This document shows, piece by piece, positions 25,455-44,106 of a DNA stretch of 64,000 nt (within the stretch, counting starts at the first letter, position 1; each line of letters opens with the position of its first letter). The notes under the pieces are model-generated. The model was not told where the DNA came from, did no database searches, and saw only the letters and a program-made list of their open reading frames with translations. Location of the stretch: NCBI GenBank assembly GCA_045130235.1, contig JBGUPJ010000034.1, positions 96,123-160,122 on the forward strand, given 5' to 3'. The position numbers and the translations under genes are program-made. The DNA is from Bacteroidales bacterium (GTDB lineage: Bacteria; Bacteroidota; Bacteroidia; Bacteroidales; WCHB1-69).

Positions 25455-26366
25455 TTACTTGTTCCGCTGAGCCATCTTCTTGCAGATAGTGGCCATCTCT
25501 TTCCGCAACGCTTTGGGGTACAGCACTTCCGTTGTATCGCCCAAGGCCAATAGTTCCTGCCGGAAGTCGTAAGTGATGCGCAGGAAATAACTGAAAATGG
25601 TATATTCTTTCGTCTGCTCGACCACTTTCTGCGAATGGTGGAGCGGCAGCGTGCGCAAATAATTGGCCTGTCCCGACTCCACCTTCAGCCGGATGCACTG
25701 TGGCTCTTCATCTCCAACGATGATGCCGTAGCAGGTGGAGAAGAAGGCCTCCGCGCTGAAATTCTCCGGCATTTCAAACTTGTTGAATTCGATGTCAATA
25801 TCCAACATCCGGTCCAAAGCATAGATGCGCAAGGGATTATTCCCGTATTTCCCCAACAGGTACCAGCGGCGTTTGAACACCTTCAGCGCGTAGGGCTCCA
25901 CATTGAAATAGTGTGACACCCTCCCCTCCATCCAGAACGGGTGGTAATCGAACATGATGGTGCAGTTGTCGCGCATGGCCTCGAGGATGGTGGAAAGAAA
26001 CTCCCCGCCCGACGGGTTCGGCTCGAGCAGGATGCGGTCTTTCAGCTGCGCGCTCTCGTTGATATGGTTGTTGACCGTCAGCGTTTCCAGCAGCCACCGC
26101 CGGAACGCCGATGTGTCGGTGAGGCTGCCGCGTTCCACAATATAATACGAGTTGGTGCTCTTGTGGCAGTCGATCTCCACCCCGAAAAGCTCCCACACAT
26201 CGTTCCGGTGGCGCATAAAGGTGCGCCAGTTGTACTCAGCCCCCTTTGACAGGAGTTCATCGTCTTTCCATTTTTCAGACAAATCATGGAAAGTAATGCC
26301 TGCGGAACCAGCCTGATAGATGGTATCCACAAGCCATACGTAGCGGGATAATAATTGCTTGCTCAT
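25455..26366 (-). CDS. WYL-domain transcriptional regulator (wHTH-WYL-WCX)
   Basis: N-terminal RY.WLVDTI...RTF.RHR HTH; VEPYALK.FKRRWYLLG...IYALDRM WYL motif; YLRTLPLH.SQ WCX motif. Confidence 0.92.
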   Translation of the reverse strand: MSKQLLSRYVWLVDTIYQAGSAGITFHDLSEKWKDDELLSKGAEYNWRTFMRHRNDVWELFGVEIDCHKSTNSYYIVERGSLTDTSAFRRWLLETLTVNNHINESAQLKDRILLEPNPSGGEFLSTILEAMRDNCTIMFDYHPFWMEGRVSHYFNVEPYALKVFKRRWYLLGKYGNNPLRIYALDRMLDIDIEFNKFEMPENFSAEAFFSTCYGIIVGDEEPQCIRLKVESGQANYLRTLPLHHSQKVVEQTKEYTIFSYFLRITYDFRQELLALGDTTEVLYPKALRKEMATICKKMAQRNK

Positions 26367-26386
26367 CGTTTTAAAATTTCACGCGG

Positions 26387-26422
26387 CAAATATAGGCTTT
26401 TTCTATGACAAAACGTGTCATA
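26387..26422 (-). promoter_or_regulatory. WYL box 0 (perfect palindrome) plus -7 element of the WYL gene
   Basis: Minus strand TATGACA-cgttt-TGTCATA-9 nt-TATATTTG. Confidence 0.8.
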
Positions 26423-26428
26423 TTGAAC

Positions 26429-26464
26429 TGTGATATGTTTTGTCATACTTGTAGACTAATTTTG
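26429..26464 (+). promoter_or_regulatory. WYL box 1 plus -7 element
   Basis: TGTGATA-tgttt-TGTCATA-cttgtagac-TAATTTTG. Confidence 0.8.
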
Positions 26465-26500
26465 CGGCAGTTTTCAAACCAATCATCAAAAAACTGTTTT

Positions 26501-27244
26501 ATGAACGAAAAAACACTTCACGTAACCAGCGAATCGGCCAATGCCGGAACGGTAAGCCACGCACTGCACAACATGAAAATATCTGAGGAGGTGGTATATT
26601 GTCCCATCGATTTGTCTTGTGGGTATTTACCGAAAGATTTTTCAGACAAAGAACTCTGTTTTGCAGTTGCCTCACAGAGCTATGCAGTGACCACCCAAGA
26701 ACGAATAGAGCTTTTGGATGAGCTGAAAAAGTTCGTCTCAACCGATTATTCTGTTTATGACAAAATCATCGTATGGCACGGCTGGTCTTCCAAAGATCTA
26801 ATGACGTTGTACTTGATGTCCGTCCTTATTGAAAGGAATCTGTATCATATTGACATAAGGGATTGTAGTACATTTATGTCTAGAATGTCCTCGACCCCGT
26901 TCCCTGACATGGGGCATGTTAGTTCCGATTCTATACAGGAAATGATTCCTCTCGCAAAACCAGTCTCAGCTGCTGAAAAACAAAAATATCAGAAACAGTG
27001 GCACAAATGGATTCATTCAAAACACCCTTATCGCTTGAGTGATCCACAGACGGGTGTCATAAAAGGGTTCCCCGAGAATTTTATGGATAAAACCATATAT
27101 GAATCGGCCAAGACCAATCCCAGCATTATCATCCTCACTTCCAGAGTCTGGAAAGAGTACCTACACTTATCCATTTCTCCTTCCAATATTTGTGCACGGA
27201 TTCTCGAACTCTCACAAAAGGGAAGACAAAAGATAACGTTATAG
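26501..27244 (+). CDS. DUF1835/DUF3658-like protein
   Basis: LHV..SES..G, DLS.G.L, KIIVWHG and W..W motifs; ATG at 26501. Confidence 0.65.
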   Translation: MNEKTLHVTSESANAGTVSHALHNMKISEEVVYCPIDLSCGYLPKDFSDKELCFAVASQSYAVTTQERIELLDELKKFVSTDYSVYDKIIVWHGWSSKDLMTLYLMSVLIERNLYHIDIRDCSTFMSRMSSTPFPDMGHVSSDSIQEMIPLAKPVSAAEKQKYQKQWHKWIHSKHPYRLSDPQTGVIKGFPENFMDKTIYESAKTNPSIIILTSRVWKEYLHLSISPSNICARILELSQKGRQKITL

Positions 27245-27246
27245 GT

Positions 27247-27381
27247 GAATTCGAAAAAAGACCAGACAATTTTCCGGACAAGTCGGCAAAAATTGATTTT
27301 TTGAAAGAGCTGATTGCCGACATTCAGGAGTGCATTGAAAAGGTGGAGAATGAGGAGGGGGATAACTGGTTAGGATTGTGA
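27247..27381 (+). pseudogene. 3' remnant of a paralog of the small gene at 32670-32882
   Basis: EFEKRPDNFPDKSAKIDFLKELIADIQECIEKVE versus EFEANPDNFPDKSAKIEFLKELIADIEECVERVE; no own start. Confidence 0.8.
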
Positions 27382-27501
27382 GATGAATGATTTTTTGCAT
27401 TTTTACAGCGTTATATTTTCAGATTTTGTTTCAAGGGGCTTCGGCAGGGTTTGGATGTATGACGTAATTAGCTAATAACAAGAAGTCTCTTTATTACTCT
27501 T

Positions 27502-28563
27502 ATGGCACAGTGGAAGACGTACACCATCAAGGACATTATTAATGAAATTGAATCAGAAACCTTCGTATTACCAATAATACAAAGAGAATTAGTTTGGGAT
27601 AAAGATAAGATTATTGCGTTATTTGAAACCATTATGCTGCAAGAATCTTTCGGCGGAATAATGACTGTAAAGGAACCAGCAAAGAAAGAGCCTTTATTTG
27701 CATATAAATCTTTTATAAAAGAATATTTAGGACATACTCCCGAAGCCAAAGAACATAAATTAACTGACAAGGAAATAAGTTATGTTATTGATGGGCAACA
27801 ACGTTTGTCTGCCATATATATTGGCGTTGCAGGTGAATATAATGGTGAGTCTTTATATTTTGACCTAAATGGGGAAGCCCAAAAAGGTGTGTTTAATTTT
27901 ACTTTTGCAAAAGATTACACATCAAACAAATTATCGAAAGACATCGATAATTTCGATGCATCATCTCGCAGATCAACTGCATGGATTCAAGTTTCTGACT
28001 TGTATCAATTAGCCATAGATGCTGGTGGCTTGCACACGACTATTATGGATGATGATAAAATAGTTGATTTCATTGATAAGGGAGCAGACAGGGAGACAAT
28101 ACTAGATAATATCTTATTGTTTACATCTTCATTTTTAATGAATTCCGTTATCGGTGTGTGTAGTGTTGATTATGACAAGCACAAAGATATTGATGAAAAT
28201 CGGGTTAGAATTGTGAAACTATTTCAAAAACTCAATCAAGGTGGCACAAAGCTCACAGCAATAGAGTTGATGTGAGCTTTTTTGAAATCATATTCTGTTA
28301 GTAACGAAATCAGGGACAAATATTCCGATGTTGGATTCAACAAGATGCTGTAATAAGTAACAGAAATATTGTCGTATAAGAGATATTGTGGTTATGGAAA
28401 ACAATTATTGAAATCCATATACTACCATTGTAAAGATTTAGGATTCAGACTATTTATCGAAAACACGGTGCTTCCTTTTTATCAAAGCATGGTAAGAAGG
28501 GGCGCAACCATCATTGAATATGGGAATATGGTTGAAATAACCAACAAAACAAATCTTGATTAG
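27502..28563 (+). pseudogene. DUF262 (GmrSD-like) protein, truncated at 28275 with degenerate remainder
   Basis: LP.IQRE.VW, VIDGQQRL, F.KLN.GGT.L; TGA immediately after the DUF262 domain; AT-rich debris follows. Confidence 0.75.
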
Positions 28564-28575
28564 TCTCTTCCCTTA

Positions 28576-28705: not shown

Positions 28706-28741
28706 TATGTCGTGGTTTGGCATACGTGGACCCTATTTTTG
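28706..28741 (+). promoter_or_regulatory. WYL box 2 plus -7 element
   Basis: TATGTCG-tggtt-TGGCATA-cgtggaccc-TATTTTTG. Confidence 0.72.
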
Positions 28742-28796
28742 TCGGCGAATTATCAACCTTTAGCAGTTGCGCCCGACACGAAGCAGGGCAGGAATT

Positions 28797-28931
28797 ATGT
28801 ACACCTTAAATTTTCCAAATGGCATGAGCCAAACGTACTCATCTGAAAGTGCACTGAGAGTTGCCGCAGAAAAGATGGGAGGAACAGCCAAACACATTGG
28901 CAACAAAACTTACGTGTTTGTGCCGAAGTAG
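28797..28931 (+). CDS. Small protein, 44 aa (below the ORF-track cutoff)
   Basis: MYTLNFPNGMSQTYSSESALRVAAEKMGGTAKHIGNKTYVFVPK*, between WYL box 2 and a terminator. Confidence 0.65.
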   Translation: MYTLNFPNGMSQTYSSESALRVAAEKMGGTAKHIGNKTYVFVPK

Positions 28932-28940
28932 TAGCAAGGG

Positions 28941-29060: not shown

Positions 29061-29096
29061 TATGTCACGTTCTGTCATACCTGTACCCTAATTTTG
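29061..29096 (+). promoter_or_regulatory. WYL box 3 plus -7 element
   Basis: TATGTCA-cgttc-TGTCATA-cctgtaccc-TAATTTTG. Confidence 0.82.
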
Positions 29097-29138: not shown

Positions 29139-29759
29139 ATGGAAAAACAACAATTAGACGATTATCTACTGAGCAAACAACTCAGGATAGAAGCTTTCAA
29201 AGAATTATCTGGTAGTTACCTGCTGACGGAGGAAATGATGCTCGCTTTTCAAAACGAATTAGACTGGACGAAAGTGTCTGCCAACAACAGTATTCCTTGG
29301 TGTGCCGGGAAAATCGAGCGGTGGAAAAGCCGTATTGACTGGAAGGTCTTCTCAAGCAACGTAAGTGCGAATGCTCTAACACCCAACAATATAGAACGGT
29401 TTAAGGACTATTGGGATTGGGAAGCGTTGTCCGGGAGATACGACTTGATTTACACTTGCGAGCTCATCGACAAATACCTCGACCGTTGGAATTGGACTAA
29501 ACTTATTAACAACTATTACAACAATGTCCAAAGATACTTCTACCATACCCATTACAGCCGGCTCGGCAGACGCACAGATTATGACCCTAAACACATTTCA
29601 TATCCACTGCCTCCTAAGGTTTTTCTTGAACGTTACCAGCAATATATACCTGTGGAAGATTTTGAAAACAGTGCTCTTTGGGATGCTCTCGTGGAAGACG
29701 AAAAAATGAGAATTGAGCAGGAGCTTGTAGAAATCGAGTGGCCAAATAAAAGCAAATAA
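29139..29759 (+). CDS. Tryptophan-repeat hypothetical protein A
   Basis: Repeated (I/W)DW..(L/F)S units; paralog of next ORF. Confidence 0.75.
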   Translation: MEKQQLDDYLLSKQLRIEAFKELSGSYLLTEEMMLAFQNELDWTKVSANNSIPWCAGKIERWKSRIDWKVFSSNVSANALTPNNIERFKDYWDWEALSGRYDLIYTCELIDKYLDRWNWTKLINNYYNNVQRYFYHTHYSRLGRRTDYDPKHISYPLPPKVFLERYQQYIPVEDFENSALWDALVEDEKMRIEQELVEIEWPNKSK

Positions 29760-29793
29760 AAACATTATTCAATACCAAACAGACACTTTAGTG

Positions 29794-30363
29794 ATGGACT
29801 CTCAAAAATCAAACTTCCCTCTGATAGAAAGAAGAATCCGGAAAGCGGCAATGAAGCGCATATCCGAAGATTATCCTCTTACAGAAGAATTATTAGAGTT
29901 TTATAAAGACGAGTTGGAGTGGTCTGGAATCTCGTTCAATCGTAATATCAAATGGAATGAACGAATGATCGAGCGGTGGAAAGACCGTATTGACTGGAAT
30001 GTCTTCTCACGCACTGTGGACACGGGAATTTTAACACCCAATAACATTGAACGGTTTAAGGACTATTGGGACTGGGGAGAACTCACCATGCGATTAACCT
30101 TGTCTTGCGAACTGATAGATCTGTATATCGACCGTTGGGAATGGTGGGTGATGCATGCCCCAAAGAGTGAACATATAGTGGCTGTCGATTCTTCGGAAGA
30201 AGCAGTTTCTCCCATGGATTTCCTATTGCGGTATTATCAGCACCTTCCCTTTGAGATTCTGCAATACAAATCGGGATTTTGGGGTCAGCTGGTCGAGGAA
30301 GAAATGAGGAATATTGTAAAAGAGTGGAACGCGTGCACAACTATATCAGCGACGACAACCTGA
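29794..30363 (+). CDS. Tryptophan-repeat hypothetical protein B
   Basis: Shares IERWK.RIDW.VFS and LTPNNIERFKDYWDW with protein A; 3' end runs into the rtcB fragment. Confidence 0.75.
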   Translation: MDSQKSNFPLIERRIRKAAMKRISEDYPLTEELLEFYKDELEWSGISFNRNIKWNERMIERWKDRIDWNVFSRTVDTGILTPNNIERFKDYWDWGELTMRLTLSCELIDLYIDRWEWWVMHAPKSEHIVAVDSSEEAVSPMDFLLRYYQHLPFEILQYKSGFWGQLVEEEMRNIVKEWNACTTISATTT

Positions 30364-30710
30364 TCCGCAAGGGTGCCATCTCCGCCCAAGAAGGCGAACG
30401 CTGCATCATTCCGCTCAACATGCGCGACGGCTCGCTCATCTGCATCGGCAAGGGCAACGCGGACTGGAACTGCTCTGCGCCGCATGGAGCCGGGCGCGTG
30501 ATGAGCCGTTCAAAGGCCTTCAAGGAACTGCGGCTGGATGATTTCAAAAGCTCCATGGAAGGCATTTACAGCGAAACCATTTCCAACGAAACCCTTGACG
30601 AAGCACCGATGGTGTATAAGCCTATGGATGAGATTCTGGCCAACATACAGGATACCGTTCGGGTGGAGAGCATCATCAAGCCGGTGTTCAATTTCAAAGC
30701 CGCCGAATAA
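30333..30710 (+). pseudogene. rtcB: RtcB RNA ligase, C-terminal fragment only
   Basis: HNY...IRKGA, IIPLNMRDGS, SAPHGAGR.MSR and DEAP..YK motifs; N-terminal two thirds absent. Confidence 0.88.
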
Positions 30711-30878: not shown

Positions 30879-30914
30879 TATGTCATGTCTTATCATACGT
30901 GGGTGCTAATTTTG
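30879..30914 (+). promoter_or_regulatory. WYL box 4 plus -7 element
   Basis: TATGTCA-tgtct-TATCATA-cgtgggtgc-TAATTTTG. Confidence 0.78.
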
Positions 30915-30941: not shown

Positions 30942-31601
30942 ATGATTCATTGTAATGATTACACCATTGAACGGATAGAGCAGGAGATTGTAGCGGAATA
31001 CGACCGATTCCCTGTTGATTATCCCGAACACCGTTACCTGCTGAAGTTGCGCAAAGACCTGCTCAACCGGCAGGCGTTGGCGCTCCAGTCGGAACTACTG
31101 CCCGACATCATCGCCTTTAACGATGCACTACGCAACGCCCTGCACTCCATGTATAAACACACCCATCAGGTGTGGAACGACCTCGCCGGCCTTCACTATG
31201 AAAATTTCGAGGTGACGGCCCGATGCTACCTCGGCAGCGACTACCCGACGCTGCATCCTTTGCAGAATAACTCACGACAAGATCTGTGGGATGCGCTCCG
31301 CGACAGCGGCTACAACCCGCTGTACGAGGATGGCGTATCCCTCTCAACACTGATGCTTCCCAATGACCTCCACGAATCGTTCGACGACTTCATCGGCATG
31401 ACCTGTCCGCCGCCCAACTGGAACGAGGGACTGGACCAAGATCTGACCAAAGAGTTGCACCTCATCAGTCCGTTCCACCACCTCTTCGACCACACAAATT
31501 TCGCCCTCACCGATTTCATCTTCGTGCGGGACTTTCGAACGGAGATCAATGTGGAAATCGACAACGAAATCATTGATGGCAAGCAATCTACCAACATTTA
31601 A
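30942..31601 (+). CDS. Hypothetical protein
   Basis: 219 aa ORF directly after WYL box 4. Confidence 0.72.
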   Translation: MIHCNDYTIERIEQEIVAEYDRFPVDYPEHRYLLKLRKDLLNRQALALQSELLPDIIAFNDALRNALHSMYKHTHQVWNDLAGLHYENFEVTARCYLGSDYPTLHPLQNNSRQDLWDALRDSGYNPLYEDGVSLSTLMLPNDLHESFDDFIGMTCPPPNWNEGLDQDLTKELHLISPFHHLFDHTNFALTDFIFVRDFRTEINVEIDNEIIDGKQSTNI

Positions 31602-31621: not shown

Positions 31622-32581
31622 TTGGACAAAGTCTCCTTTGACGAGATAGCGGTGTTTATCCATAAATTTTCCTATAACCTTGCGCTTTACAAAACCCACT
31701 ACGATATGCTCCGGCACCTTATGCTGCAACAGGCCCCAGATGGCAACAAGACCGTTGAAATCAAATACGAAAAGGATGGTTACGAAGGTGCGGAACCCTA
31801 TCTCGATGCCTATCCGTTGGAGGGCGACTTGTGGGAGGTGAGTCTGGCGAAGGAGTTGATTGTGCAACCGGATGTGAAGGAGAGTTGGCCGGAGATCGCT
31901 GCCCGTTGCTTGTGGCACACTTCATTCTACGGTTTCACCCGTGAACAGCGCAACGAGACGTTCGATAAGTTGAATTACTACGAACAAAACTTGCTGGACT
32001 ATGACATCGTGCGCATCAGGGCACAAAAAGTGGCCCGACAGCTCGAGAATATAGGCAGCGACATCCCGTCAAAAAAAGATTTCCTGAAAATTTCCTCTTT
32101 CCGTGCAGCAGTAAGAAAAAGGATGTCTTGTTTCAAAGCGAAACGGTTGAGACGCAGAATTGCGAGAAGGCGTATTGCGAGGGAGTACTATAGCCGCATC
32201 TGCACCATTGGCGGCTTCATTGTGAATGCCGCGCCCGACGAAACCAGCCAAAGCGACATTACGTTGAAGGAACTTTGCGAACTCTTCAGAGCCAACCGCA
32301 TCCAAACCTATGACTACCGTTCTTACGCTTACAATGCGGCCGAGCGAGCACAATGGATGTTGGATCTGGTGAGGAAGTATAACGCCTTCCACCATGGCAT
32401 TTTCAACAATTGTGTGGTCTGTCTCAGCGCCTCCTCCGAGCACCCGCTGAGCGAAGCCGACCGCCGCGTAGCCGATTATGTACTGGAAATGTGTGAGGGC
32501 CATCGTAACCTTATCTTGAAAACCGACGACAGTTTGGGCGAGGAGATAAGGTTGATGGTGGCGTTTTATGAGATGGCGTAA
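31622..32581 (+). CDS. Hypothetical protein (possible DUF6557-like motif)
   Basis: 319 aa ORF, TTG start; EIAARCLWHTSFYGF motif. Confidence 0.6.
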   Translation: MDKVSFDEIAVFIHKFSYNLALYKTHYDMLRHLMLQQAPDGNKTVEIKYEKDGYEGAEPYLDAYPLEGDLWEVSLAKELIVQPDVKESWPEIAARCLWHTSFYGFTREQRNETFDKLNYYEQNLLDYDIVRIRAQKVARQLENIGSDIPSKKDFLKISSFRAAVRKRMSCFKAKRLRRRIARRRIAREYYSRICTIGGFIVNAAPDETSQSDITLKELCELFRANRIQTYDYRSYAYNAAERAQWMLDLVRKYNAFHHGIFNNCVVCLSASSEHPLSEADRRVADYVLEMCEGHRNLILKTDDSLGEEIRLMVAFYEMA

Positions 32582-32583: not shown

Positions 32584-32619
32584 TCTGCCCTGTTCTGTCA
32601 TACCTGTGCCCTAATTTTG
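32584..32619 (+). promoter_or_regulatory. WYL box 5 (degenerate left half) plus -7 element
   Basis: TCTGCCC-tgttc-TGTCATA-cctgtgccc-TAATTTTG. Confidence 0.72.
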
Positions 32620-32669: not shown

Positions 32670-32882
32670 ATGAATATGAACGATTACTATTTTTACGTTG
32701 CCCCAGACGAAGAAGGTTTGGGATGGGAATTCACAATCAGCGACTTGATTGAGAGTGAATTCGAAGCAAACCCCGACAATTTTCCAGACAAATCTGCAAA
32801 AATCGAGTTCTTGAAAGAATTGATTGCTGACATTGAGGAGTGTGTTGAAAGAGTGGAGAGGGAGGAGGAAATAACTGGATAG
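32670..32882 (+). CDS. Small acidic protein, 70 aa
   Basis: MNMNDYYFYVAPDEEGLGWEFTISDLIESEFE...; supported by a paralogous remnant at 27247. Confidence 0.72.
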   Translation: MNMNDYYFYVAPDEEGLGWEFTISDLIESEFEANPDNFPDKSAKIEFLKELIADIEECVERVEREEEITG

Positions 32883-33010: not shown

Positions 33011-34066
33011 ATGAAAAGGAATTATTGGATACATCGCATTAGTCATATTGCAGAGATTTCATACACTTTGCTTGATGATAATTATCTGAGTTACGGTTGG
33101 AGTGACTTCGAAGAAGATGGATTTATAGAAGGGGTTAGAAATGAGGGAGGTTGGCAATTCTTAGAAGAACGTTTTTTATCAGAATGGGGTGAATTGTCAA
33201 GAGGAAGATACCAATTATGGAATTTCATCAAAGAAATGAAAGCTGGTGACTGGGTTATAGTACCCACCAATGGTGCATTTTCCATATATGAACTATTGGA
33301 AAACGAACCAATCATGATAAAGGATATCAAAAATGTTGTAATAAAGAATTGGAATGGAGAAGAAATTCAAAGAGACGATAATGGTTATTTGATAAATAAT
33401 AATAACGATAGAATAGATCTTGGTTTTGCGAGGCGTGTTAAAGTCATACAAAAAAATATATCAAGATACGATTATGCTGATGCTGCATTAACTGCACGAT
33501 TGAAAGTAAGACAGACGAATGTCTGTATTAATGACTTACAAGAAAGTGTTCTAAAAGCGTTAGAAGGATATTTGAACAACAAACCTATTCATTTCCGAAA
33601 TGAAATCAACGATGTGATTCCCAATATTTGCTCAATTATTCAAACAAAATTGAACCCTAATAAGTTTGAGTATCTGGTAAAATGGTATTTTGAGAGAATT
33701 GGAGCAAGTTCTGTTGTCATCCCTCCCAAAAACCCATCTAGCAAAGTTGACTATGAGGATGTGGACGTAATAGCTACATTTGATTTACTGAAAACCATCT
33801 ATTATGTACAAGCTAAACATTATCGTGGAGAAACAGGCTCTTGGGGCGCTGATCAAATATCACATTTAAAAGAATTAGAATCGATTAAAGATGATAGACA
33901 AGACGATGGGTATACCAAAGTTTATTGGCTTATATCTTCTTCGGAACTCTTCACAGACGAATGTGTTAACAAAGCGAAGGAAACCAATGTGCAATTAATT
34001 GACGGCAAAATGTTTTCTTCAATGCTTTTAGATGCTGGTTTTCTTGGAGTAGGAGATGTGTTATAA
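33011..34066 (+). CDS. Mrr-type (type IV) restriction endonuclease
   Basis: C-terminal P..FE.LV, DVDVIA, VQAKH, LIDG Mrr catalytic motifs; N-terminal YGW...MK.GD.VIVP domain; AT-rich. Confidence 0.85.
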   Translation: MKRNYWIHRISHIAEISYTLLDDNYLSYGWSDFEEDGFIEGVRNEGGWQFLEERFLSEWGELSRGRYQLWNFIKEMKAGDWVIVPTNGAFSIYELLENEPIMIKDIKNVVIKNWNGEEIQRDDNGYLINNNNDRIDLGFARRVKVIQKNISRYDYADAALTARLKVRQTNVCINDLQESVLKALEGYLNNKPIHFRNEINDVIPNICSIIQTKLNPNKFEYLVKWYFERIGASSVVIPPKNPSSKVDYEDVDVIATFDLLKTIYYVQAKHYRGETGSWGADQISHLKELESIKDDRQDDGYTKVYWLISSSELFTDECVNKAKETNVQLIDGKMFSSMLLDAGFLGVGDVL

Positions 34067-34197
34067 ATAGGATATCCTTCATCACAGACTCCGCCCACTA
34101 CACCGCCGTGCTTGACCGCGCCATGAAGGCCAAGCCTCATTGTGGATTAGAACTGTCGATATCAAAGACAATGAAGATACTTTTTAACAGCACATTT

Positions 34198-34902: not shown

Positions 34903-35011
34903 TCTTGCCCACCACCATCATCACTGACTCCAACCACTACACCACAATGCTTGACCTCGCGTTTTCCGCTGACTGAAACCCTTATATCCTTTCGTCCTCC
35001 CACAACACATC

Positions 35012-35856: not shown

Positions 35857-35892
35857 TATGACACGATTTGACATACCCGTATCTTATTTTTG
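35857..35892 (+). promoter_or_regulatory. WYL box 6 plus -7 element
   Basis: TATGACA-cgatt-TGACATA-cccgtatct-TATTTTTG. Confidence 0.78.
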
Positions 35893-36041: not shown

Positions 36042-37109
36042 ATGGCAATTAACACACACGAACTGTACGAAATCTTGGAGGCGATGCCCGCCTCGCAAAA
36101 CCTGATGCTGGTGGGAAAACACGGCATCGGCAAATCGGAGATCCTCACCCACTACTTCGAGCGGCTGGGCATTCCCGTCAACACCCTGTTTCTCGGGCAG
36201 ATGAGCGACCCGGGCGACCTCATCGGTCTGCCCCGTCTGGACGAAACCACCGGCAAGACCGTCTTCATGCCGCCCTACTGGTTTCCCACCGACGGCCAGC
36301 CCATCGTGCTCTTCCTCGACGAGCTGAACCGCGCCCGTCCCGAGGTGCTGCAAACCGTGATGGATCTCACCCTCAACCGCAAACTGGCCGGCCGCGCCCT
36401 GCCCGAAGGCAGTCGCCTTATCGCCGCCGTGAACGACGGGGAGGAGTACCAGCTCACCGACCTCGACCCCGCCCTCGTGTCGCGCTTCAACATCTACACC
36501 TTCCGCCCCTCCGCACAGGAATGGCTGCTCTGGGCCAGCACGAACCAACTCGACCCACGGGTGATTGACTTCATCCGCCACAACCCGAAGATGCTCGACG
36601 GCGATGGCAGCGCCGATAACCCCGACCGCGGTCTCGACAAGACGCCCGACCGCCGCGCATGGAAAAAGGTGTCCGACTGCATCGCGCCCATCGAACAGCT
36701 GGGCGACCTCCACAAAAAGTTGATCGCTGGCATCGTCGGCCCCATCGCCACACAAGCCTTCTTCTCGTTCCTCACCACCAACCGCATCCTTTCCGGACAG
36801 GACATTCTGCTCAACTATGCCAAAAACAAGTCTGCCCTCCGCAAGTACCACCTGCATGAGATGGCCATGGTGAACGAAAGTATCTTCCGCTTCTTGGAGG
36901 TGAACGAGCTTACTGCAGAACAAACCAAGTCTGCCGCTGATAATTTGAAGCTGTACGTCAACGACTTGGAGAAAAGCCATCGTAACGAGGAGCTGGCACA
37001 CTTCGCCTCCTTCTTTGAAAAAGAAAGCTACCCCAATGCCATCAGCTTTATCCTTACGGAAGCCAATGAGGTGTATGATACGGTCATCCAGTTTGTCCAA
37101 AATTTGTAA
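36042..37109 (+). CDS. MoxR/dynein-related AAA+ ATPase
   Basis: Walker A GKHGIGKS, D..DL.GLP, Walker B LFLDELNRA, DPAL.SRF. Confidence 0.92.
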   Translation: MAINTHELYEILEAMPASQNLMLVGKHGIGKSEILTHYFERLGIPVNTLFLGQMSDPGDLIGLPRLDETTGKTVFMPPYWFPTDGQPIVLFLDELNRARPEVLQTVMDLTLNRKLAGRALPEGSRLIAAVNDGEEYQLTDLDPALVSRFNIYTFRPSAQEWLLWASTNQLDPRVIDFIRHNPKMLDGDGSADNPDRGLDKTPDRRAWKKVSDCIAPIEQLGDLHKKLIAGIVGPIATQAFFSFLTTNRILSGQDILLNYAKNKSALRKYHLHEMAMVNESIFRFLEVNELTAEQTKSAADNLKLYVNDLEKSHRNEELAHFASFFEKESYPNAISFILTEANEVYDTVIQFVQNL

Positions 37110-37190: not shown

Positions 37191-38495
37191 ATGAAAGAAA
37201 TGATTACCAAAATTGTGGAACTGTGGTTTTTGAGCGAGCCCGCTCTGTTCGCCATCTACTGCAACCAGCAGCTGCGTGAGAACCACAACATGCAGTGCGG
37301 GGTGCGGTGCGGGAAAGGTTTTGTGGAATACAACCCCACGCTCCTCGAAACGGAGAAGGTGAGCGAAGAACAGCTGGAAGAGCTGATGCGTACGGAGATG
37401 ATCCGGCTGTTTCTGAAGCACCCGTACCAGCGGCAGCCGGAGAATGTCCTGCCTGAAGCACTCACCCTCGGCAGCGACATGGTGCTGGCGCAACATTACC
37501 GCCTGCAACGTACGGGAATGATCACCCCTGATGCATTCCAACTTACTAAAAACCAATGTTTTGAATGGTATGTCAACAGGTTGGACGGACTGCTGCGGCA
37601 ACCCTTTCAGGCCAACACTCAGGATTCGGGAAAGAATGAAGATGAAACCGGAGGCAGTGATTCTGACCAAAAGTTGGGAAATAGCTTGAGCGATGACGGC
37701 ATGAATGGCAAGGGCGAAGGAAACGGCGACGGTGCGGCACAAGGGAGCGGAGGTGGCGGAATGAAGCTGGAAAGAGAAGGACAGAGCAGTCAAAGTAGTG
37801 GCACCCTTTCAGACCGGCAGCGCCGGGCACTGGCCGACCAGTCGGGCCTGTGGGAGGAGGACGAGCTGCGGCAGCAGGAGATCAACGAGATCATCCGCGA
37901 CACCACCCAGTGGGGTACGATTCCGGGCGACATGGTGGAACAGATCCTCGCCTCGCTGGTGGTGAAGATGGACTACCGCAAGGTGCTGTCGGCATTCCAC
38001 ACCAGCATCCTGACGAGCCGCCGCAAGCTCACCCGCATGAAACCCAACCGGCGGAGTGGTTTCGCACAGATGGGCAGTCGCTACGACCTCGCCTCCAAAC
38101 TGTTGGTGGCGGTGGACGTGAGCGGCTCCATCAGCACGAAGACCTTGACGGCCTTCTATTCAGCCATCGCGCGGTTCTTCCAATACGGCGTGGAAACCAT
38201 CGATGTGGTGCAGTTCGACACGGTGCTGCGCGAGGTGACCACCTTCGGGAAACGTCCGCGCATGGTGGAGGTGAAAGGGCGCGGCGGCACCAGCTTCCAA
38301 CCCATCTTCGACCACCTGAAAACGCACCCAGACTACGACGGCTGCATCATCTTCACCGACGGCTATGCCGATGAACCCCATGTGGACTTCCTCCTTAAAT
38401 CCAAGGTGTTATGGGTGTGCCGCAGCGAAAAAGAATATAACGAGCACGCCAAATGGATGCGGGAAACAGGAAAATCTTGCTGGATTGAATTTTAG
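37191..38495 (+). CDS. DUF2201 family VWA-like domain protein
   Basis: Low-complexity G/S/D linker; MIDAS VDVSGS, QFD, GRGGT.F.P, IIFTDG. Confidence 0.88.
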   Translation: MKEMITKIVELWFLSEPALFAIYCNQQLRENHNMQCGVRCGKGFVEYNPTLLETEKVSEEQLEELMRTEMIRLFLKHPYQRQPENVLPEALTLGSDMVLAQHYRLQRTGMITPDAFQLTKNQCFEWYVNRLDGLLRQPFQANTQDSGKNEDETGGSDSDQKLGNSLSDDGMNGKGEGNGDGAAQGSGGGGMKLEREGQSSQSSGTLSDRQRRALADQSGLWEEDELRQQEINEIIRDTTQWGTIPGDMVEQILASLVVKMDYRKVLSAFHTSILTSRRKLTRMKPNRRSGFAQMGSRYDLASKLLVAVDVSGSISTKTLTAFYSAIARFFQYGVETIDVVQFDTVLREVTTFGKRPRMVEVKGRGGTSFQPIFDHLKTHPDYDGCIIFTDGYADEPHVDFLLKSKVLWVCRSEKEYNEHAKWMRETGKSCWIEF

Positions 38496-38506: not shown

Positions 38507-39874
38507 ATGGATATACAAGAATTAAAAGATCTTTCGGTAGAAAATTTTAACACCATCCACACACAGTTGTGGAATAGGATTCTCCGTCAAAAGTATGAAA
38601 AGGAGTTTTTCTCCCATAAAGAGAAGAAGCCTGTTCAGATTGACAAGTTGCCTGAACGCATGAAAGCGCTCTACCCAGGTGCGAAAATCACTTTTGAAAA
38701 AATTAGTCAGAATGGAAAAGAAAAGGAACAGTGGAAATACATTGTTCTGCCCAATGTGGGCGTTGAAAGGCTGCCCTATTGGGGAACCCCGCTCGGGATT
38801 GAAGGCGCGAGTACGGGTAACTATTGCCGTATTGCCGATCCATTGGGATTTCTGAAAGACATTAACGAGCAGATGCCGAAGTGGAAAGAGGAATTCAGGG
38901 AGTTGTGCAAAAAATATGAAACTGAACTGAAAGCCCTGGAATACAGGCGGCTGGAGTATTGTATAAAGGAGGGTGAGACCCATGTGGATAATTTACAATA
39001 CAGGCTGGATGACTTTTTGCTGCTGGAACGTTCCATGCCCCGTAATCCGGAACATCTGCTGCAGGAGTTCAACGCTTCTGCGGATGTAAAAGCAAGCATT
39101 ACGGACAATGCTTTGACAAAATACCAGTTGCGGAACATGCAAGTGCGCTTTTGGAAAAGTGAATTGCGGTATTACTTTATTGTAAGAGAAAACTTTCATC
39201 GTTCCGAACTTGACATCGGAGAGAAAGAACTTTCACTGAAAAAACTTCAAGAAATTGACTGTCAGCTTCCTATATGGGAAGAGGAGACAAAAAACCTCTT
39301 GTTTGAATTACAGAAAAAAGAGAAGACCGACAAAATCGGGCAGAACGTGCTGCAGACGCTGGTGATGCAGCGGATGCGGGAACTGGGGCTGGAATACCAG
39401 ATTGAAAAAAAGGACCTCTGTGGGGATATTGAGCTGACGGTGAAGCTGAAGAAACGGAGGATGCTGAAAATCACCTTGCAAGCCAACGACAGCGACCGCG
39501 TGCAACAGCAGATTGACAATTTGGCACAGTACGTGGCCACCCTCAACATGCTCTCGGGTGACTATCGCATCGAAAAGGAAAGAAAACAGAAAACCTCTGA
39601 GAAGCAAGATGTGGTGCAGCGTCTGGCAGAACAAAAGATGCAGGAATTGGGACTGGAGTACAGGATAGAAAAAGACTACTGGTTCGTTACGCTGATCGTG
39701 GAGTTGGAAAAACAGAGGTGCCTGAAGATAAAGCTGCCTACCGGTCACCCCGAGTGGGTGGAGCAAAAGCTTGCCCATCTTGCACAGGATGTCGCCACCC
39801 TCAACCATATCCCGGTGGAGTTCTGCATCACTCCGCAAGATGTCAATATAGAATGGCAGAAGGAAAGAAGATAG
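38507..39874 (+). CDS. Hypothetical protein P1 (C-terminal domain tandemly duplicated)
   Basis: MRELGLEYQIEK... repeated as MQELGLEYRIEK...; paralog of next ORF. Confidence 0.78.
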   Translation: MDIQELKDLSVENFNTIHTQLWNRILRQKYEKEFFSHKEKKPVQIDKLPERMKALYPGAKITFEKISQNGKEKEQWKYIVLPNVGVERLPYWGTPLGIEGASTGNYCRIADPLGFLKDINEQMPKWKEEFRELCKKYETELKALEYRRLEYCIKEGETHVDNLQYRLDDFLLLERSMPRNPEHLLQEFNASADVKASITDNALTKYQLRNMQVRFWKSELRYYFIVRENFHRSELDIGEKELSLKKLQEIDCQLPIWEEETKNLLFELQKKEKTDKIGQNVLQTLVMQRMRELGLEYQIEKKDLCGDIELTVKLKKRRMLKITLQANDSDRVQQQIDNLAQYVATLNMLSGDYRIEKERKQKTSEKQDVVQRLAEQKMQELGLEYRIEKDYWFVTLIVELEKQRCLKIKLPTGHPEWVEQKLAHLAQDVATLNHIPVEFCITPQDVNIEWQKERR

Positions 39875-39904
39875 CAGAAACGCATTAAATTGATTTTTAA
39901 GAAT

Positions 39905-41023
39905 ATGGATATACAGAAATTATTAAACAGTTCTTTGAAGAGCAACAGAACCACGCTCACTTCGTTGTATTTGGAATTCATTAGAGAGAAAAACAATCAA
40001 CTGGTATCCCAGCACTTCGAAGGTCGTACTCCCTACAATACCCTGCCGTATCTTCTTCGGAATACTATGCCTGAAACCGAGGTGATTCTTTATACCGGAG
40101 ATAAGGTCAGCGTTCTTGAAAAGGGGGTGCATGCGTGGCGCTATCTTGTCCTTCCGAACGTGGTTTTTCAAAGTCATGGATCCGCGAGCTACCGTAGCCT
40201 TTCCATTTGTGAAGAGACTGTGTGGTTGGGTACCAATTCCGTGAACTACCTCATCGCCGTCAACAATCAGATGCCGCAGTGGAAAGCGGAATTTAAGGAG
40301 ATTTGTTCACAATATAAATCTGAAATACAGGAGATTGAACGAAAACGGCAGGAGAAGATCGCCCAACATCACCTTCATGCCTTCATCTCGACCTATCTTC
40401 AGGACAAGGTCGATGACTGGCTGTTGTTGGAGCGCCGCACACCCGATTATGCGGAGCGGTTGCTGCGTTGCATCATGGCGGCGGCGGGCAAGACATTTGA
40501 TTGGAAAAAACGGGACTATAGCGTCGAATACAAGCTGCCGAACATGCGGGTGATGGTTCAGAAGGGAAGTCCGTGGTTTTTTCCCCAGGCAACCATTTCC
40601 TACAAGGGCAACACCCTCAAATTCAGGGAGCGGGACATTTCGTTGGAAATGTTGCAAGAACTTGACCATCAATTATCTATCTGGAATGAAGAGGCAAAGA
40701 CCATCCTGCTCGACTTGCAGAAAAAGGAGAAGGCGGAACAGCTCGGTCGCAATGTGATGCGTGCACTGGTGAAGCAGAAAATGCGGGAACTCAAAATGGA
40801 ATACCAGCTTGAGGACGATCTCGAAAAGGGAAATCTGATTTTGGCTTTGAAGTTGGAGAAGCGGAGGATGATAAAAGTCACTCTGCGGTCGGGGCATATT
40901 GACTTGATGAAGCGGCAGCTCGACACCTTGGAGGAGATTGTGAGTGCGCTCAACGCCGTGCCGATGGATTACCGCATCTATTTCCAAAGCAACAACACAG
41001 TGTGGCAGAAGGAGGCGGAATAG
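39905..41023 (+). CDS. Hypothetical protein P2 (paralog of P1)
   Basis: Shared MDIQ, W.Y.VLPNV, QMP.WK.EF.E.C, LLLER, LQKKEK and W.KE motifs. Confidence 0.78.
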   Translation: MDIQKLLNSSLKSNRTTLTSLYLEFIREKNNQLVSQHFEGRTPYNTLPYLLRNTMPETEVILYTGDKVSVLEKGVHAWRYLVLPNVVFQSHGSASYRSLSICEETVWLGTNSVNYLIAVNNQMPQWKAEFKEICSQYKSEIQEIERKRQEKIAQHHLHAFISTYLQDKVDDWLLLERRTPDYAERLLRCIMAAAGKTFDWKKRDYSVEYKLPNMRVMVQKGSPWFFPQATISYKGNTLKFRERDISLEMLQELDHQLSIWNEEAKTILLDLQKKEKAEQLGRNVMRALVKQKMRELKMEYQLEDDLEKGNLILALKLEKRRMIKVTLRSGHIDLMKRQLDTLEEIVSALNAVPMDYRIYFQSNNTVWQKEAE

Positions 41024-41084
41024 CGGGATTGATAATTCCACCACCATTTCATTTTCAATTTTTCGTTTCCCATTTTCCATTTGC

Positions 41085-41120
41085 TATGTCACGTTCTGTC
41101 ATACCTGTACCCTAATTTTG
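41085..41120 (+). promoter_or_regulatory. WYL box 7 plus -7 element
   Basis: TATGTCA-cgttc-TGTCATA-cctgtaccc-TAATTTTG, identical to box 3. Confidence 0.82.
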
Positions 41121-41142
41121 CCGCATCCAAAAACCCACACCT

Positions 41143-41856
41143 ATGACAACCACCACACAACCACAAAACAACGAGGAATCTCTTCGACAGGCGGTAGAAA
41201 TCTTGAACGAAGTAGTGGCCTCCACCGCCCACATTGAGGATGATGCGAGGCGCATTAAGCACATCCTGTTGCACCGGCACCAATGCAGCCTGGATGCGCT
41301 CACCAACAAATGTGAAATGGACAGCCATTGGATGAGGATGGAGAAAATGCTGCACATTGAGGCTTTTTGGACCTTCATCAACCCGAAGCCAGACGACCCG
41401 CGGTATGCACAGCACCGGATGAACTATGTGATCGAGATGCTGCTGCGGTGCGAAAAGAATGCGACGGGGTCTTTCGTGGACGTGGATGCACGGCTGCAAC
41501 AGAACCCGCACTACCTGTTTGAGCGCTGCCTGCCCATCATGCTGGACATGGAGGCCGAAAAAGTGCCATTTCTGCGATGCGACCTCTCCCTTGACGAGCT
41601 GATGGAGGAGGAATTGCTGATGCCCGTCTGCCTGCACGAAATCAGTCCGGGGATGTTTGCGCTTTGGATGGCGGTGAAAATGATGTTCGAGCGGATGTGG
41701 TCGTGGTACACCCATATGGAATTGGATTACAAGGAGGAGTGCTTCGAGGCGGATGCCAACGGCGTGCGCGACCTCCTCTCACAATTCATCGAAGCCAAAG
41801 AGGAAGACCTCGTCCCGACCGGCAAAACGTTGGGGGACTATTTGGGGGAGGATTAA
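41143..41856 (+). CDS. Hypothetical protein
   Basis: 237 aa ORF directly after WYL box 7. Confidence 0.72.
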   Translation: MTTTTQPQNNEESLRQAVEILNEVVASTAHIEDDARRIKHILLHRHQCSLDALTNKCEMDSHWMRMEKMLHIEAFWTFINPKPDDPRYAQHRMNYVIEMLLRCEKNATGSFVDVDARLQQNPHYLFERCLPIMLDMEAEKVPFLRCDLSLDELMEEELLMPVCLHEISPGMFALWMAVKMMFERMWSWYTHMELDYKEECFEADANGVRDLLSQFIEAKEEDLVPTGKTLGDYLGED

Positions 41857-41969
41857 GTGTGAGTGAGATATTTTTGTAATTTTGCAGAGTAAACTCATTA
41901 CGATTTGCTTCTCCATAAAGAGGTTTTTGCTAAGCATTTTCCAAAATAATTCAATAAATACACAATACT

Positions 41970-42782
41970 ATGTTAGGCGCAATTATTGGCGACACCGCCG
42001 GTTCGGTGTATGAATTTGACAACATTAAAACAACGGATTTCCCGTTTTTTAATAATCGCAGTGAATTTACGGATGACAGTTTGATGTCGTTTGCCGTGGC
42101 CGACTGGCTGTTGCACGACAGCGACCACACGCACCCTGCGTTGGAGGAGGCGATGGTGCGTATCGCCCATGAGTTCCCCAATCCGATAGGTGGTTATGGG
42201 GGTAGTTTTTACCGATGGCTGTTCAGCGGACGGGAACGCAAGCCCTACAACTCATGGGGCAACGGCTCGGCTATGCGTGTGAGTGCCGTGGGATGGGCTT
42301 TTGACACATTGGAGGAGACCCTCCGTGTGGCCGAGATTTCGGCTTCCATCACCCACAACCATCCAGAGGGCATCAAGGGGGCGCAAGCCACTGCTGCCGC
42401 CATCTTTCTTGCCCGAAACGGCAAGGCAAAGAACGAGATCAAGTCCTATATTGAAGAGACATTCGGCTATGACCTGCACCGCACTTGCGATGAGATTCGA
42501 CCATACTATCAATTTGATGAGAGCTGTCAGGGCACGGTGCCGGAAGCCATCATTGCTTTCCTCGACAGCAGCGATTTCGAGAATGCCATCCGGCTGGCCG
42601 TTTCGCTTGGCGGCGACAGCGACACCATCGCCTGCATCACCGGCGGCATCGCCGAAGCTTACTACAAGGAGATTTCTGAAGAAATCGTCCGGCAGATGTG
42701 GCAGCGGCTTCCCGAGTGTTTCCGCGAAATATTGCGGGAGATGAGGGAAAGGTTCGGGTACCCATTACCGATAAGGGAGTAA
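41970..42782 (+). CDS. ADP-ribosylglycohydrolase family protein
   Basis: GAIIGD..GS.YEF, FTDD, GNGSAMRVS, THNHP, GGDSDTIA.I.G. Confidence 0.93.
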   Translation: MLGAIIGDTAGSVYEFDNIKTTDFPFFNNRSEFTDDSLMSFAVADWLLHDSDHTHPALEEAMVRIAHEFPNPIGGYGGSFYRWLFSGRERKPYNSWGNGSAMRVSAVGWAFDTLEETLRVAEISASITHNHPEGIKGAQATAAAIFLARNGKAKNEIKSYIEETFGYDLHRTCDEIRPYYQFDESCQGTVPEAIIAFLDSSDFENAIRLAVSLGGDSDTIACITGGIAEAYYKEISEEIVRQMWQRLPECFREILREMRERFGYPLPIRE

Positions 42783-42863
42783 AGGATATTTTTGTAATTT
42801 TGCGGCTGATATTATTAAACCAAATGTTGCATTTGTAACTTGAATTCAGTAAATCAATGTAAA

Positions 42864-43487
42864 ATGGTAAAGCAAGAATTATTCATTGGAAACCATTATT
42901 ATAATGGTATATATGGCAAAAAAGTAATGGTCGTCGGCCACCAAAAACATGCTACAGATAAGGAAAGAGCTCTGTATAAGGACAATCCTATGGCATATAA
43001 TGTATCAACCGATAATACAGACATGTTAAAAGAGCTCATTAGTGGTGAGTGTATGGAATGGGAACATAGAGACCGTAAAGCTTGGTTGCAGTTTGGAAAA
43101 ATGCTCTCAGGGAATCTCAACTTTAATTTAGGAACAGAACAAAGTTCTAAACTGTTTGATTCTATAGCATTCTGTAATTATCTTCAAATTCCAGATATTG
43201 CATTAGACAATAGGCAAGGTAAAGATGAGGAATGCTTATATGTATATTCAGAGAATATTTTTAAAGAATACTTAGAGGAAGCAAAACCAGACAAAATCAT
43301 AGTTTGGGGTGAACCATACAAATATATCAAAAAGATAGGCACAGAACTTGATGATAGAAATTGTAGAATTGCATCGCCTTTGCATGGGAAAATTGATGTC
43401 TTAAAGATCAATCATCCATGCAGAGTTGAAAGAGGTGGTTATGATGAAATGATTAAAAGAATAAAAGCTTTTATTCAGAAGAATTAG
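42864..43487 (+). CDS. Uracil-DNA glycosylase-like superfamily protein 2
   Basis: FIG..Y, KVMVVGH, IAFCNYLQ, KPD.IIVWG, INHP motif order; AT-rich. Confidence 0.58.
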   Translation: MVKQELFIGNHYYNGIYGKKVMVVGHQKHATDKERALYKDNPMAYNVSTDNTDMLKELISGECMEWEHRDRKAWLQFGKMLSGNLNFNLGTEQSSKLFDSIAFCNYLQIPDIALDNRQGKDEECLYVYSENIFKEYLEEAKPDKIIVWGEPYKYIKKIGTELDDRNCRIASPLHGKIDVLKINHPCRVERGGYDEMIKRIKAFIQKN

Positions 43488-43607
43488 GTTTTATTACTAT
43501 GCCCACCACCCTCATCATCTTCCATCACTAACACACCACCGTGCTAAAAAATCCGCGTTTCCCGAGGGGTGAAACCCTTATGTCCTTTCGTCCTCCCACA
43601 ACCCATC

Positions 43608-43841
43608 ATGCCCTATCCCATCATCGAAATCACCCAAGCTTCCGAGCTGTTCCCGCCCTTGCTGCGGGCCATTGGCGAGGATTGTCCCGAAAGGCTGTGG
43701 CTGAGAGGCAACCTCGAGCTTTTGAAAGCTGAAAAGAGCGTGGCCATCATCGGGGTACGGGCCGCACAGTTCCCCTACCGCAACGAAGCCACCGCCGGCA
43801 ACGACAACCTCCTGCACGAGGGCATCGCTGGATTGATTTAA
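43608..43841 (+). pseudogene. dprA: dprA duplicate with in-frame 396-bp internal deletion
   Basis: Closely matches both ends of 35012-35641, joined at a GGCCGC microhomology. Confidence 0.9.
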
Positions 43842-44070
43842 TAATACTGCGTTTTTTCGCGGAATATAATCGGACGCATGCGATGCGTCCCTACATTGTC
43901 TCTCTCCCTTTCCCCAAAAAAATCCGCGTTTCCCGCGGGGTGAAAACCTTGTGGCTTTTTTGTCCGAACACCATTCCGCCAGCACTACCTTTCAGTTTTC
44001 CGTTTTCAGCTTTAAGACGGTGCATGCACCGTCTCTACCTTTCCATTTTCAATTTCCATTTTCCATTTAC

Positions 44071-44106
44071 CATGCCGCACTTTGTCATACCTGCGCCGTA
44101 CTTTTG
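44071..44106 (+). promoter_or_regulatory. WYL box 8 plus -7 element
   Basis: CATGCCG-cactt-TGTCATA-cctgcgccg-TACTTTTG. Confidence 0.72.

Follow-up and report, generated by a model that had tools for sequence, protein, structure and literature searches.

A gene for a WYL-domain regulator in a Bacteroidales genome lies beside an island of genes in which nine promoters carry the same palindromic box, always 9 bp upstream of the same −7 element. The stretch of DNA that we analysed, referred to here as the window, comprises 64,000 nucleotides (nt) of assembly GCA_045130235.1 (contig JBGUPJ010000034.1; C34:96123-160122 in our coordinates). The assembly, genome G000, has 2,510,255 bases in 50 contigs and is 86.4% complete, and its relatives are rumen Bacteroidales metagenome-assembled genomes. 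Among regulators of solved structure, the nearest in sequence and fold is DriD of Caulobacter crescentus, a homodimeric WYL activator of the SOS-independent response to DNA damage. We consider it probable that the 303-amino-acid (aa) protein is a DriD-type transcription activator, presumably triggered by single-stranded DNA (ssDNA).

In the mechanism that we propose, a homodimer of the regulator would bind TATGWCA-N5-TGWCATA at nine Bacteroidota promoters of the sigma-A type, where it would cover about positions −40 to −22. These promoters contain the −7 element TAnnTTTG, but their upstream context is poor and rich in G+C. Bound in this fixed register, the dimer would recruit RNA polymerase, either as DriD does or in the manner of PafBC, via the −26 element. 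The effector would most likely be ssDNA arising from damage or phage attack, and the effector-bound regulator would induce its own expression along with that of about 20 genes nearby, among them those for a DEDDh exonuclease, a MoxR–VWA pair, a DprA/ShosA-like protein, a Mrr-like nuclease, an ADP-ribosylglycohydrolase and several uncharacterized proteins. The operator mechanism is already known from DriD; what is new is the conserved gene set, the drift of the operator and the cassette-like organization of the island.

Nine boxes at one distance from the −7 element

An initial annotation, made from the letters of the window alone, had listed nine copies of a palindrome of two 7-nt half-sites separated by 5 nt (7-5-7). 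All nine are present in the sequence and all lie 9 bp upstream of TAnnTTTG, reportedly the Bacteroidota counterpart of the −10 element; the spacers N5 and N9 are invariant in length in 9 of 9 sites, and the consensus across the nine is TATGWCA-N5-TGWCATA. Box 1 (26387..26422, minus strand; TATGACA-CGTTT-TGTCATA, N9, TATATTTG), the site listed at 26404, is a perfect palindrome that points to the WYL gene and forms its own promoter, with the ATG 21 nt past the −7 element. Box 2 (26429..26464; −7 element TAATTTTG) stands back to back with it across a 6-bp gap and precedes a DUF1835/DUF3658 gene. It is on the plus strand, as are boxes 3 (28706..28741; TATTTTTG), 4 (29061..29096; TAATTTTG), 5 (30879..30914; TAATTTTG), 6 (32584..32619; TAATTTTG), 7 (35857..35892; TATTTTTG), 8 (41085..41120; TAATTTTG) and 9 (44071..44106; TACTTTTG). 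The annotation also had each box heading a transcription unit. An ATG-started open reading frame (ORF) does follow each of the nine, beginning 21–150 nt past the G of TAnnTTTG, and the claim holds to that extent: its basis is ORF adjacency and not mapped transcript starts.

We searched with a 19-nt box pattern (TATGWCA-N5-TGTCATA) and with a 36-nt pattern that adds N9 and TAnnTTTG. At up to two mismatches the 19-nt pattern has 15 strand-matches in the window, compared with 0.68 expected, and recovers seven of the nine sites; boxes 6 and 9, which have degenerate distal half-sites (TCTGCCC at 32584 and CATGCCG at 44071), are recovered only by the 36-nt pattern, with three mismatches. Genome-wide, the 36-nt pattern (up to three mismatches) finds 11 sites, all 11 with N9; nine of these are inside the 19-kb island, and the other two are at window 59656-59691(-) and at contig C30:26062(-). 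The box with its promoter element is confined almost entirely to the putative regulon.

The spacing also emerges when it is left free. Of the 547 box-like strand hits in the genome (up to three mismatches), 21 are followed by a TAnnTTTG no more than 40 nt away; 11 of these 21 show a spacing of 9, and any other spacing occurs in at most 2 cases. For palindromes of any sequence in which at least 6 of 7 positions match, a spacing of 9 upstream of TAnnTTTG occurs in 10 cases, compared with 0–6 cases at other spacings, but 4 of the 10 are island boxes. Perfect 7-5-7 palindromes in this position number four in the whole genome, one of them at spacing 9, and are too rare for a test of spacing. A chance resemblance among A/T-rich promoters, for which nothing speaks except that TAnnTTTG is common in this genome (1,943 copies), is refuted by these counts: 0 of 100 shuffles reach the 15 matches found in the window, nine of the 11 sites known genome-wide are concentrated in 19 kb and the spacing histogram has a single peak. 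We regard it as next to impossible.

A variant of the DriD operator in the same register

The published DriD site is ATACGAC(X)7GTCGTAT, and the crystallized duplex contains TACGACA-N5-TGTCGTA, as reported in PMC10853764 and PMC13004042. The island box TATGACA-N5-TGTCATA differs from it by one base per half-site; the operator, which the initial annotation did not recognize as described for Bacteroidales, is therefore a close variant of a published one. The site given for DdaA of Moraxellaceae, CGWCA-N5-TGWCG (PMC12392091), has the core GWCA-N5-TGWC in common with the island box.

The register is also that of known activators. DriD sites are described as overlapping the −35 position, and their distance to the −10 element is given as the same for every promoter under DriD control; these promoters have no good −35 hexamers, and the main effect is stated to be recruitment of polymerase (PMC13004042, 2026). 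From the promoter oligonucleotide and its ‘optimised −35’ version in the Methods of that paper, we count 9 nt between site and −10 for a 17-nt spacer, and 8–10 nt for spacers of 16–18 nt. The in vivo motif of PafBC is reported as tGTCgg(N10)tA(N3)T, in which PafB reads the GTC triplet at −23 to −28 (PMC8635444). By our own count, TGTC of the proximal half-site in the island is positioned 16 nt ahead of the ‘TA’ in the −10-like element, the same as in the PafBC motif. At the sequence level the island promoters combine what characterizes a DriD-type site: a 7-5-7 palindrome with a G.C core, a constant position overlapping −35 and a site in the regulator’s own promoter.

The likeness to DriD, as the latter is described, therefore extends over domain order, palindrome, fixed site over the −35 position and own-promoter site. 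The two differ in that identity in Foldseek alignments is only 18–22%, that the −10 element there is alphaproteobacterial whereas the element here is the Bacteroidota TAnnTTTG, and that the targets here are a DEDDh exonuclease, MoxR–VWA, DprA-like and Mrr-like proteins and uncharacterized proteins, mostly in one cassette-like island. PafBC of Actinobacteria, which acts by sigma adaptation at the −26 element, is likewise described as having WYL and WCX domains and as serving promoters without a usable −35. It is, however, reported to be a heterodimer with a non-palindromic motif that does not bind DNA unless polymerase is present, whereas the island has one regulator gene and both half-sites of its palindrome are conserved; a PafBC-type pair of co-encoded WYL paralogues was not found at the island locus. 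DdaA is described as a WYL activator of both damage-response and anti-phage genes, which ties such an activator to defence genes. Its regulon takes in recA, ssb and uvrA/C, and its motif is placed about 50 bp upstream of the transcript start, for which the authors argue against a PafBC-type arrangement (PMC12392091); the island box, in contrast, ends 9 nt before the −7 element.

The regulator resembles solved activators

The regulator gene (25455..26366, minus strand) encodes a winged helix-turn-helix (wHTH), a helical linker, a WYL domain (residues 122–191; Pfam, 2.2e-11) and a WCX domain (residues 225–299; Pfam, 1.1e-08). An AF2 model built on a 20-sequence alignment (mean predicted local distance difference test (pLDDT) score of 83.5) places helices and a wing in residues 3–61 and helices in residues 85–132, followed by beta-rich domains. 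The order wHTH, three-helix linker, WYL, WCX in a chain of about 300–330 aa is that of DriD-type regulators.

A phmmer search against sequences in the Protein Data Bank (PDB) gave five distinct matches, all to DriD (E from 3.9e-06 to 1.6e-05) and all over the WYL–WCX part. With the predicted model, Foldseek places DriD at ranks 1–10 (E from 1.5e-13 to 2.0e-11), followed by PafBC (1.6e-10 and 2.3e-10), CapW (2.1e-06) and BrxR (7.1e-06), such that the E-values of DriD and PafBC are better than those of CapW and BrxR by about seven and about four orders of magnitude, respectively. The ranking of these model comparisons is suggestive of a place for the regulator among the activators.

The WCX end of the protein has its own pattern of relationship. 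The last approximately 60 residues (window 25455-25700, from about PLHHSQKVVEQ) are near-identical to those of the orthologue in genome G001 and unlike those of the other orthologues of its own specificity class (see below). This suggests that the DNA-reading and dimerization parts may have had different histories, through intragenic recombination.

Recognition helices and boxes vary together

Eight further genomes have an orthologue of the regulator (59–86% identity); seven belong to the same genus and one, G023, to a sister genus. In 9 of 9 genomes, including G000, a box stands at N9 from TAnnTTTG in the regulator’s own promoter, in agreement with the autoregulation that the initial annotation had predicted. 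In the relatives, boxes were collected by a scan in which the varying positions were left unscored, and genomes and boxes fall into two classes. Class A (G000, G004, G005, G006 and G016) has the recognition helix WRTFMRH(R/K)NDV and boxes TATGACA/TGTCATA; the proximal half-site TTTCATA is found in 1 of its 24 boxes, the outlier at 59673 in the window. Class B (G001, G009, G014 and G023) has the helix WRTFMNHK.D. and boxes TATGCCA-N5-TTTCATA, with TTTCAT(A/C) in 17 of 19. The boxes of the orthologous exonuclease gene follow the same division: in G000 and G016 they carry TGTCATA or TGACATA, whereas those of G001, G009 and G014 carry TTTCATA.

Such a concerted change of the box at all promoters of the regulon is what a shared reader predicts, and judging from the sequences that reader is probably the WYL protein. 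The replacement of R52 by N together with the loss of the G of GTC would fit an arginine–guanine contact, of the kind described for R46 and R50 of PafB (PMC8635444) and for R37 of DriD.

In G001 (C30:24005-25905), where the lineage boxes are asymmetric (TATGCCA/TTTCATA), a second WYL gene, 34–35% identical, adjoins the regulator orthologue; in G014 the corresponding paralogue sits on another contig. A PafBC-like heterodimer in this lineage is conceivable. The outlying box of the window (59656..59691, minus strand; TATGCCA-N5-TTTCATA, N9, TATTTTTG) is of the class-B type and lies upstream of a MreB-like ORF. The ORF (59159-59629(-), 156 aa) matches only the C-terminal part of MreB, in two stretches (Pfam positions 245–324 of 327), and the box sequence is identical in G001, whose regulator belongs to that class. 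The membership of this box in the island regulon is doubtful; it may be either a chance occurrence or a link of the class-B lineage to cell-shape genes.

The eleventh genome-wide site (G000 C30:26062-26097(-)) reads TATGACA-CAGAA-TGGCACA, N9, TATTTTTG and is followed by ORFs of 119 and 609 aa and a RhuM-like gene. Similar boxes (TATGTCAC..AATGGCATA) are found in G001, G008, G016 and G018. As G008 and G018 have no close orthologue of the regulator, another paralogue may read boxes of this type.

The register is kept by other paralogues and in another family

Other WYL paralogues are associated with different 7-5-7 palindromes, again at N9 from TAnnTTTG; examples are TGTTTCA/TGAAACA at locus L019 and ACTCCCA/TGAGAGT in the own promoter of a G000 paralogue on contig C48. 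Across the order, the DriD-identical box with N9 and TAnnTTTG (up to two mismatches) gives 43 hits in 26 of 301 genomes compared with 11 for a reversed control, and at 8 of the 20 loci of this type that we examined a WYL gene lies within 1.5 kb.

In two genomes of another family of the order, G243 and G114, DriD-identical boxes stand in the same register before homologues of island genes. Identity to the window proteins is 66% for MoxR and 52–69% for VWA/DUF2201 in the two genomes, and 78% for the DEDDh exonuclease and 41% for p219 in G243; the p455/p377-like protein in G243 and G114 is a distant homologue. Further genes behind these boxes encode Nmad2 proteins, for which we found nothing relevant in the literature, and a 593-aa AAA ATPase, and one of the box-driven units contains a WYL gene with 36% identity. 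In G243 the sites are spread over at least four contigs. The gene set is thus conserved with a different operator, and the regulon does not always form an island. The initial annotation had the WYL protein controlling an island of about 20 kb promoter by promoter; the island boxes and the covariation of box and helix agree with such control, but the regulon would not be purely island-bound, as its core genes are box-driven and dispersed in this other family.

Paired boxes, arranged either back to back or in tandem, also recur; the gap is always exactly 6 bp, and the centres lie 25 bp apart. Such pairs are found at window 26404-26447, at L021–L024, at G114 C5:31845-31890 and at G243 C1:241797-241840, the boxes in the last two genomes being DriD-identical. 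The 6-bp back-to-back pair is present at the divergent promoter of the regulator in all five class-A genomes.

Activation or repression

Activation is the mode of control that we favour, and we hold it to be somewhat better than an even prospect. The evidence for it is indirect: the fold ranking, a register common to two structurally solved activators, the retention of that register across paralogues, and the composition of the spacer. In the nine island promoters the N9 spacer contains a mean of 3 A/T of 9. This is unlike ordinary promoters of the genome, as 925 others with TAnnTTTG have a mean A/T fraction of 0.73, and fits weak basal promoters.

A protein seated over −40 to −22 could equally block polymerase. 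In that case the WYL protein would be a repressor, like BrxR and CapW, that holds potentially toxic cassettes for nucleases and defence silent until it is released by a ligand. BrxR and CapW are described as WYL repressors of the BREX and CBASS defence operons (PMC9186387), with HTH–WYL–WCX domains, palindromic operators and adjoining defence genes. The box overlaps the promoter here too, the island genes include defence-like ones (PADLOC HEC-05, PDC-S02, ShosA and PDC-S48), autoregulation is common among repressors, and the −7 element may suffice for basal transcription in this genome, as no −33 peak is seen. However, repression needs overlap only and not one register, so that the constant N9 speaks against it; N9 is kept exactly across paralogues with different half-sites and across families, and equals the register of PafBC and DriD by our count. 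We know of no fixed promoter register for BrxR or CapW. Both are also the poorer fold matches (E from 2e-06 to 1e-04), and a PADLOC scan of 20 island and flanking proteins matched no BREX or CBASS models. Together with the G+C-rich spacers, this makes repression unlikely in our estimate, and readings other than activation or repression improbable even when taken jointly.

Several points weigh against a DriD-type activator. The covariation of helix and box reflects a single phylogenetic split, five genomes against four, and therefore counts as one event of small statistical weight. In the regulator model the helical linker is of low confidence (pLDDT of 51–62 at residues 81–120). The −10 assignment in the DriD oligonucleotide is ours, and the text of PMC13004042 states no distance. 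Within the island, the promoter modules are repeats of 65–83% identity, and the fixed spacing could thus have come about there by duplication, so that the cases in another family and in paralogues carry the argument from spacing. The genes for the Mrr_cat nuclease, the ADP-ribosylglycohydrolase (ARH) and p215 have a separate, box-less promoter-like module. Finally, the promoters of recA carry no box in five of five congeners, and recA was not found in the G000 assembly, at its completeness of 86.4%. With box-less recA promoters, the regulon differs from the classical repair regulons of DriD, PafBC and DdaA; recA membership characterizes the regulon of Caulobacter and not the protein family as such.

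The initial annotation also argued for activation from the place of the box, where a −33 element would be. We dropped the absence of a −33 TTTG as an argument for activator dependence because no clear −33 peak exists among 934 putative promoters of the genome. A single Peptidase_S24 (LexA/UmuD-type) gene was found in the assembly; it lies outside the window, at G000 C34:73401-73748(-), in an open frame of 155 aa.

Island genes and repeated promoter modules

The island is flanked on the left by core genes for SIR2, a metallo-beta-lactamase-fold protein and a RsmD-like protein, and on the right by saccharopine dehydrogenase, dnaN, the MreB-like ORF and metG. All island genes given below, up to and including the DEDDh exonuclease, are on the plus strand. 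Box 2 is followed by the DUF1835/DUF3658 gene (26501..27244, 247 aa; Pfam) and then by the N-terminal half of a GmrSD-like (DUF262) nuclease gene (27502..28275, 257 aa; Pfam GmrSD_N 1.1e-22), which covers positions 20–269 of 600 in the PADLOC HEC-05 profile. Behind box 3 lies a 44-aa ORF (28797..28931) that is 100% identical in G016, where it follows an identical box. After box 4 come two tandem paralogues without an assigned family (29139..30363, 206 and 190 aa; repeat families D11–D13) and the C-terminal third of a RtcB RNA ligase (30279..30710; Pfam RtcB 5.8e-25, profile positions 278–425 of 426). Box 5 precedes p219 (30942..31601) and p319 (31622..32581), neither of a known family; p219 is also box-driven in G016 and G009.

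A 70-aa ORF (32670..32882) stands behind box 6. The next block (33011..35641), which includes the PADLOC match PDC-S02, begins with the Mrr_cat nuclease (33011..34066; Pfam Mrr_cat 9.6e-11) and continues with a 264-aa protein of no family (34108..34902) and the DprA-like/ShosA-like protein (35012..35641; Pfam DNA_processg_A 1.2e-57, PADLOC ShosA 4.8e-59). Downstream of box 7, which in G016 has an identical counterpart directly before the DEDDh exonuclease gene, are a MoxR-type AAA_5 ATPase (36042..37109; Pfam), a VWA/DUF2201 metallopeptidase-like protein (37191..38495; Pfam), p455 (38507..39874) and p377 (39890..41023). Box 8 leads into p237 (41143..41856), box-driven in G006 as well, the ADP-ribosylglycohydrolase (41970..42782; Pfam ADP_ribosyl_GH 3.2e-39), p215 (42840..43487) and a second, partial DprA-like copy with 90% identity (43569..43841). 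Box 9 precedes the DEDDh (DnaQ-like) 3'-5' exonuclease (44164..44658, 164 aa; Pfam RNase_T 6.5e-17, PADLOC PDC-S48), the most conserved member of the regulon, box-driven in five genomes of the genus; a RhuM/Fic gene follows it without a box. NCBIfam names only the DprA-like, ARH, DEDDh and Doc-like proteins, and the ESM Atlas holds no usable match for p219 or p237.

The intergenic regions of the island consist of 17 families of direct repeats. A T-rich stretch of units resembling TTTTCMATT precedes five of the nine boxes and a G+C-rich hairpin precedes several. The modules ahead of boxes 3, 7 and 9 each contain one of three terminator-like sites that coincide with the repeats; a scan of the island for sigma-70 promoters and terminators was as a whole uninformative (23 terminator-like sites compared with 21.6 in shuffles). 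G016 is colinear with G000 except for blocks exchanged at these modules, the G000-specific blocks being window 27404-28620, 33011-34902 and 35893-43753. Contigs from other metagenomes join cassettes in other orders with junctions in the modules, although the short sides (23–58 nt, 90% likeness) make this a weak hint. The four sequence runs behind these contigs are probably DNA and carry no information on expression or transcript starts; no RNA dataset is on record for the island. As far as the sequences tell, the truncations of GmrSD, RtcB and DprA fit repeated recombination at module joints.

These features would also suit a reading in which the boxes are just a part of a spreading intergenic module (terminator hairpin, T-rich stretch and promoter) that is read by another factor or by none, with the WYL gene incidental. 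Inside the modules, however, half-sites and TAnnTTTG are conserved while the sequences of N5 and N9 vary, and the box is almost a copy of the DriD operator, DriD being the closest match to the regulator among proteins of solved structure. The change of the box throughout the regulon parallels that of the recognition helix, a WYL gene accompanies DriD-type box loci repeatedly, as noted above, and local duplication is no explanation for the box-driven orthologues of G243, given their dispersal over contigs. We therefore consider the spreading of an unread module very improbable and retain the DriD-type activator as the preferred reading.

The modules show some further regularities. The leaders behind boxes 3 and 6 (28742-28796 and 32620-32669) are 77% identical over 81 nt (family D8), and those behind boxes 2 and 4 (26460-26486 and 29093-29119) are 89% identical over 27 nt (family D15), with different ORFs after them in both pairs. 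Rfam at gathering thresholds gave 0 matches over the whole window, so these leaders are not known RNA families. The box-less module occurs at 32890-32920, 41857-41887 and 42775-42805 with a consensus near GGGTGAAAGGGATATTTTTGTAATTTTGCGG, in which TTTG stands directly before TAATTTTG. TTTG abuts TAnnTTTG in 101 of the 934 putative promoters of the genome and may represent an extended −7 element of strong promoters.

Discussion

Sensing of DNA damage and phages is poorly known in gut and rumen Bacteroidales. The literature that we searched contains no account of a WYL-controlled regulon or its operator in this order; one preprint mentions a WYL gene of B. uniformis in passing. The locus described here supplies a regulator and an operator, along with nine promoters whose geometry can be tested, and the same logic appears with a DriD-identical operator in well-assembled genomes of another family (G114 and G243).

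Taken together, we tentatively put forward, as a possibility that falls short of being probable, that Bacteroidales have an order-wide, LexA-independent alarm regulon under DriD-like WYL activators. Its operator would drift among lineages (TACGACA, TATGACA and TATGCCA/TTTCATA). What would stay is the register of the operator relative to the −7 element, together with a core set of genes for the DEDDh exonuclease, the MoxR–VWA/DUF2201 pair, p219 and p455/p377-like proteins. The rumen genus would have packed the regulon into one array beside the regulator. There, an activator-dependent promoter module with its terminator hairpin would double as a joint for homologous recombination, through which cassettes are gained, lost and truncated. 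Any gene inserted behind the module would become inducible by damage or phage at once.

If the reading as a DriD-type activator holds, the fixed-register activation of DriD and PafBC reaches a phylum in which the primary sigma factor recognizes another type of promoter, and conserved genes that are so far uncharacterized (MoxR–VWA/DUF2201, the small DEDDh exonuclease and p219) would be assigned to a stress response. A promoter module that carries its own activator site could likewise make a chromosomal region an exchangeable, co-regulated array of cassettes.

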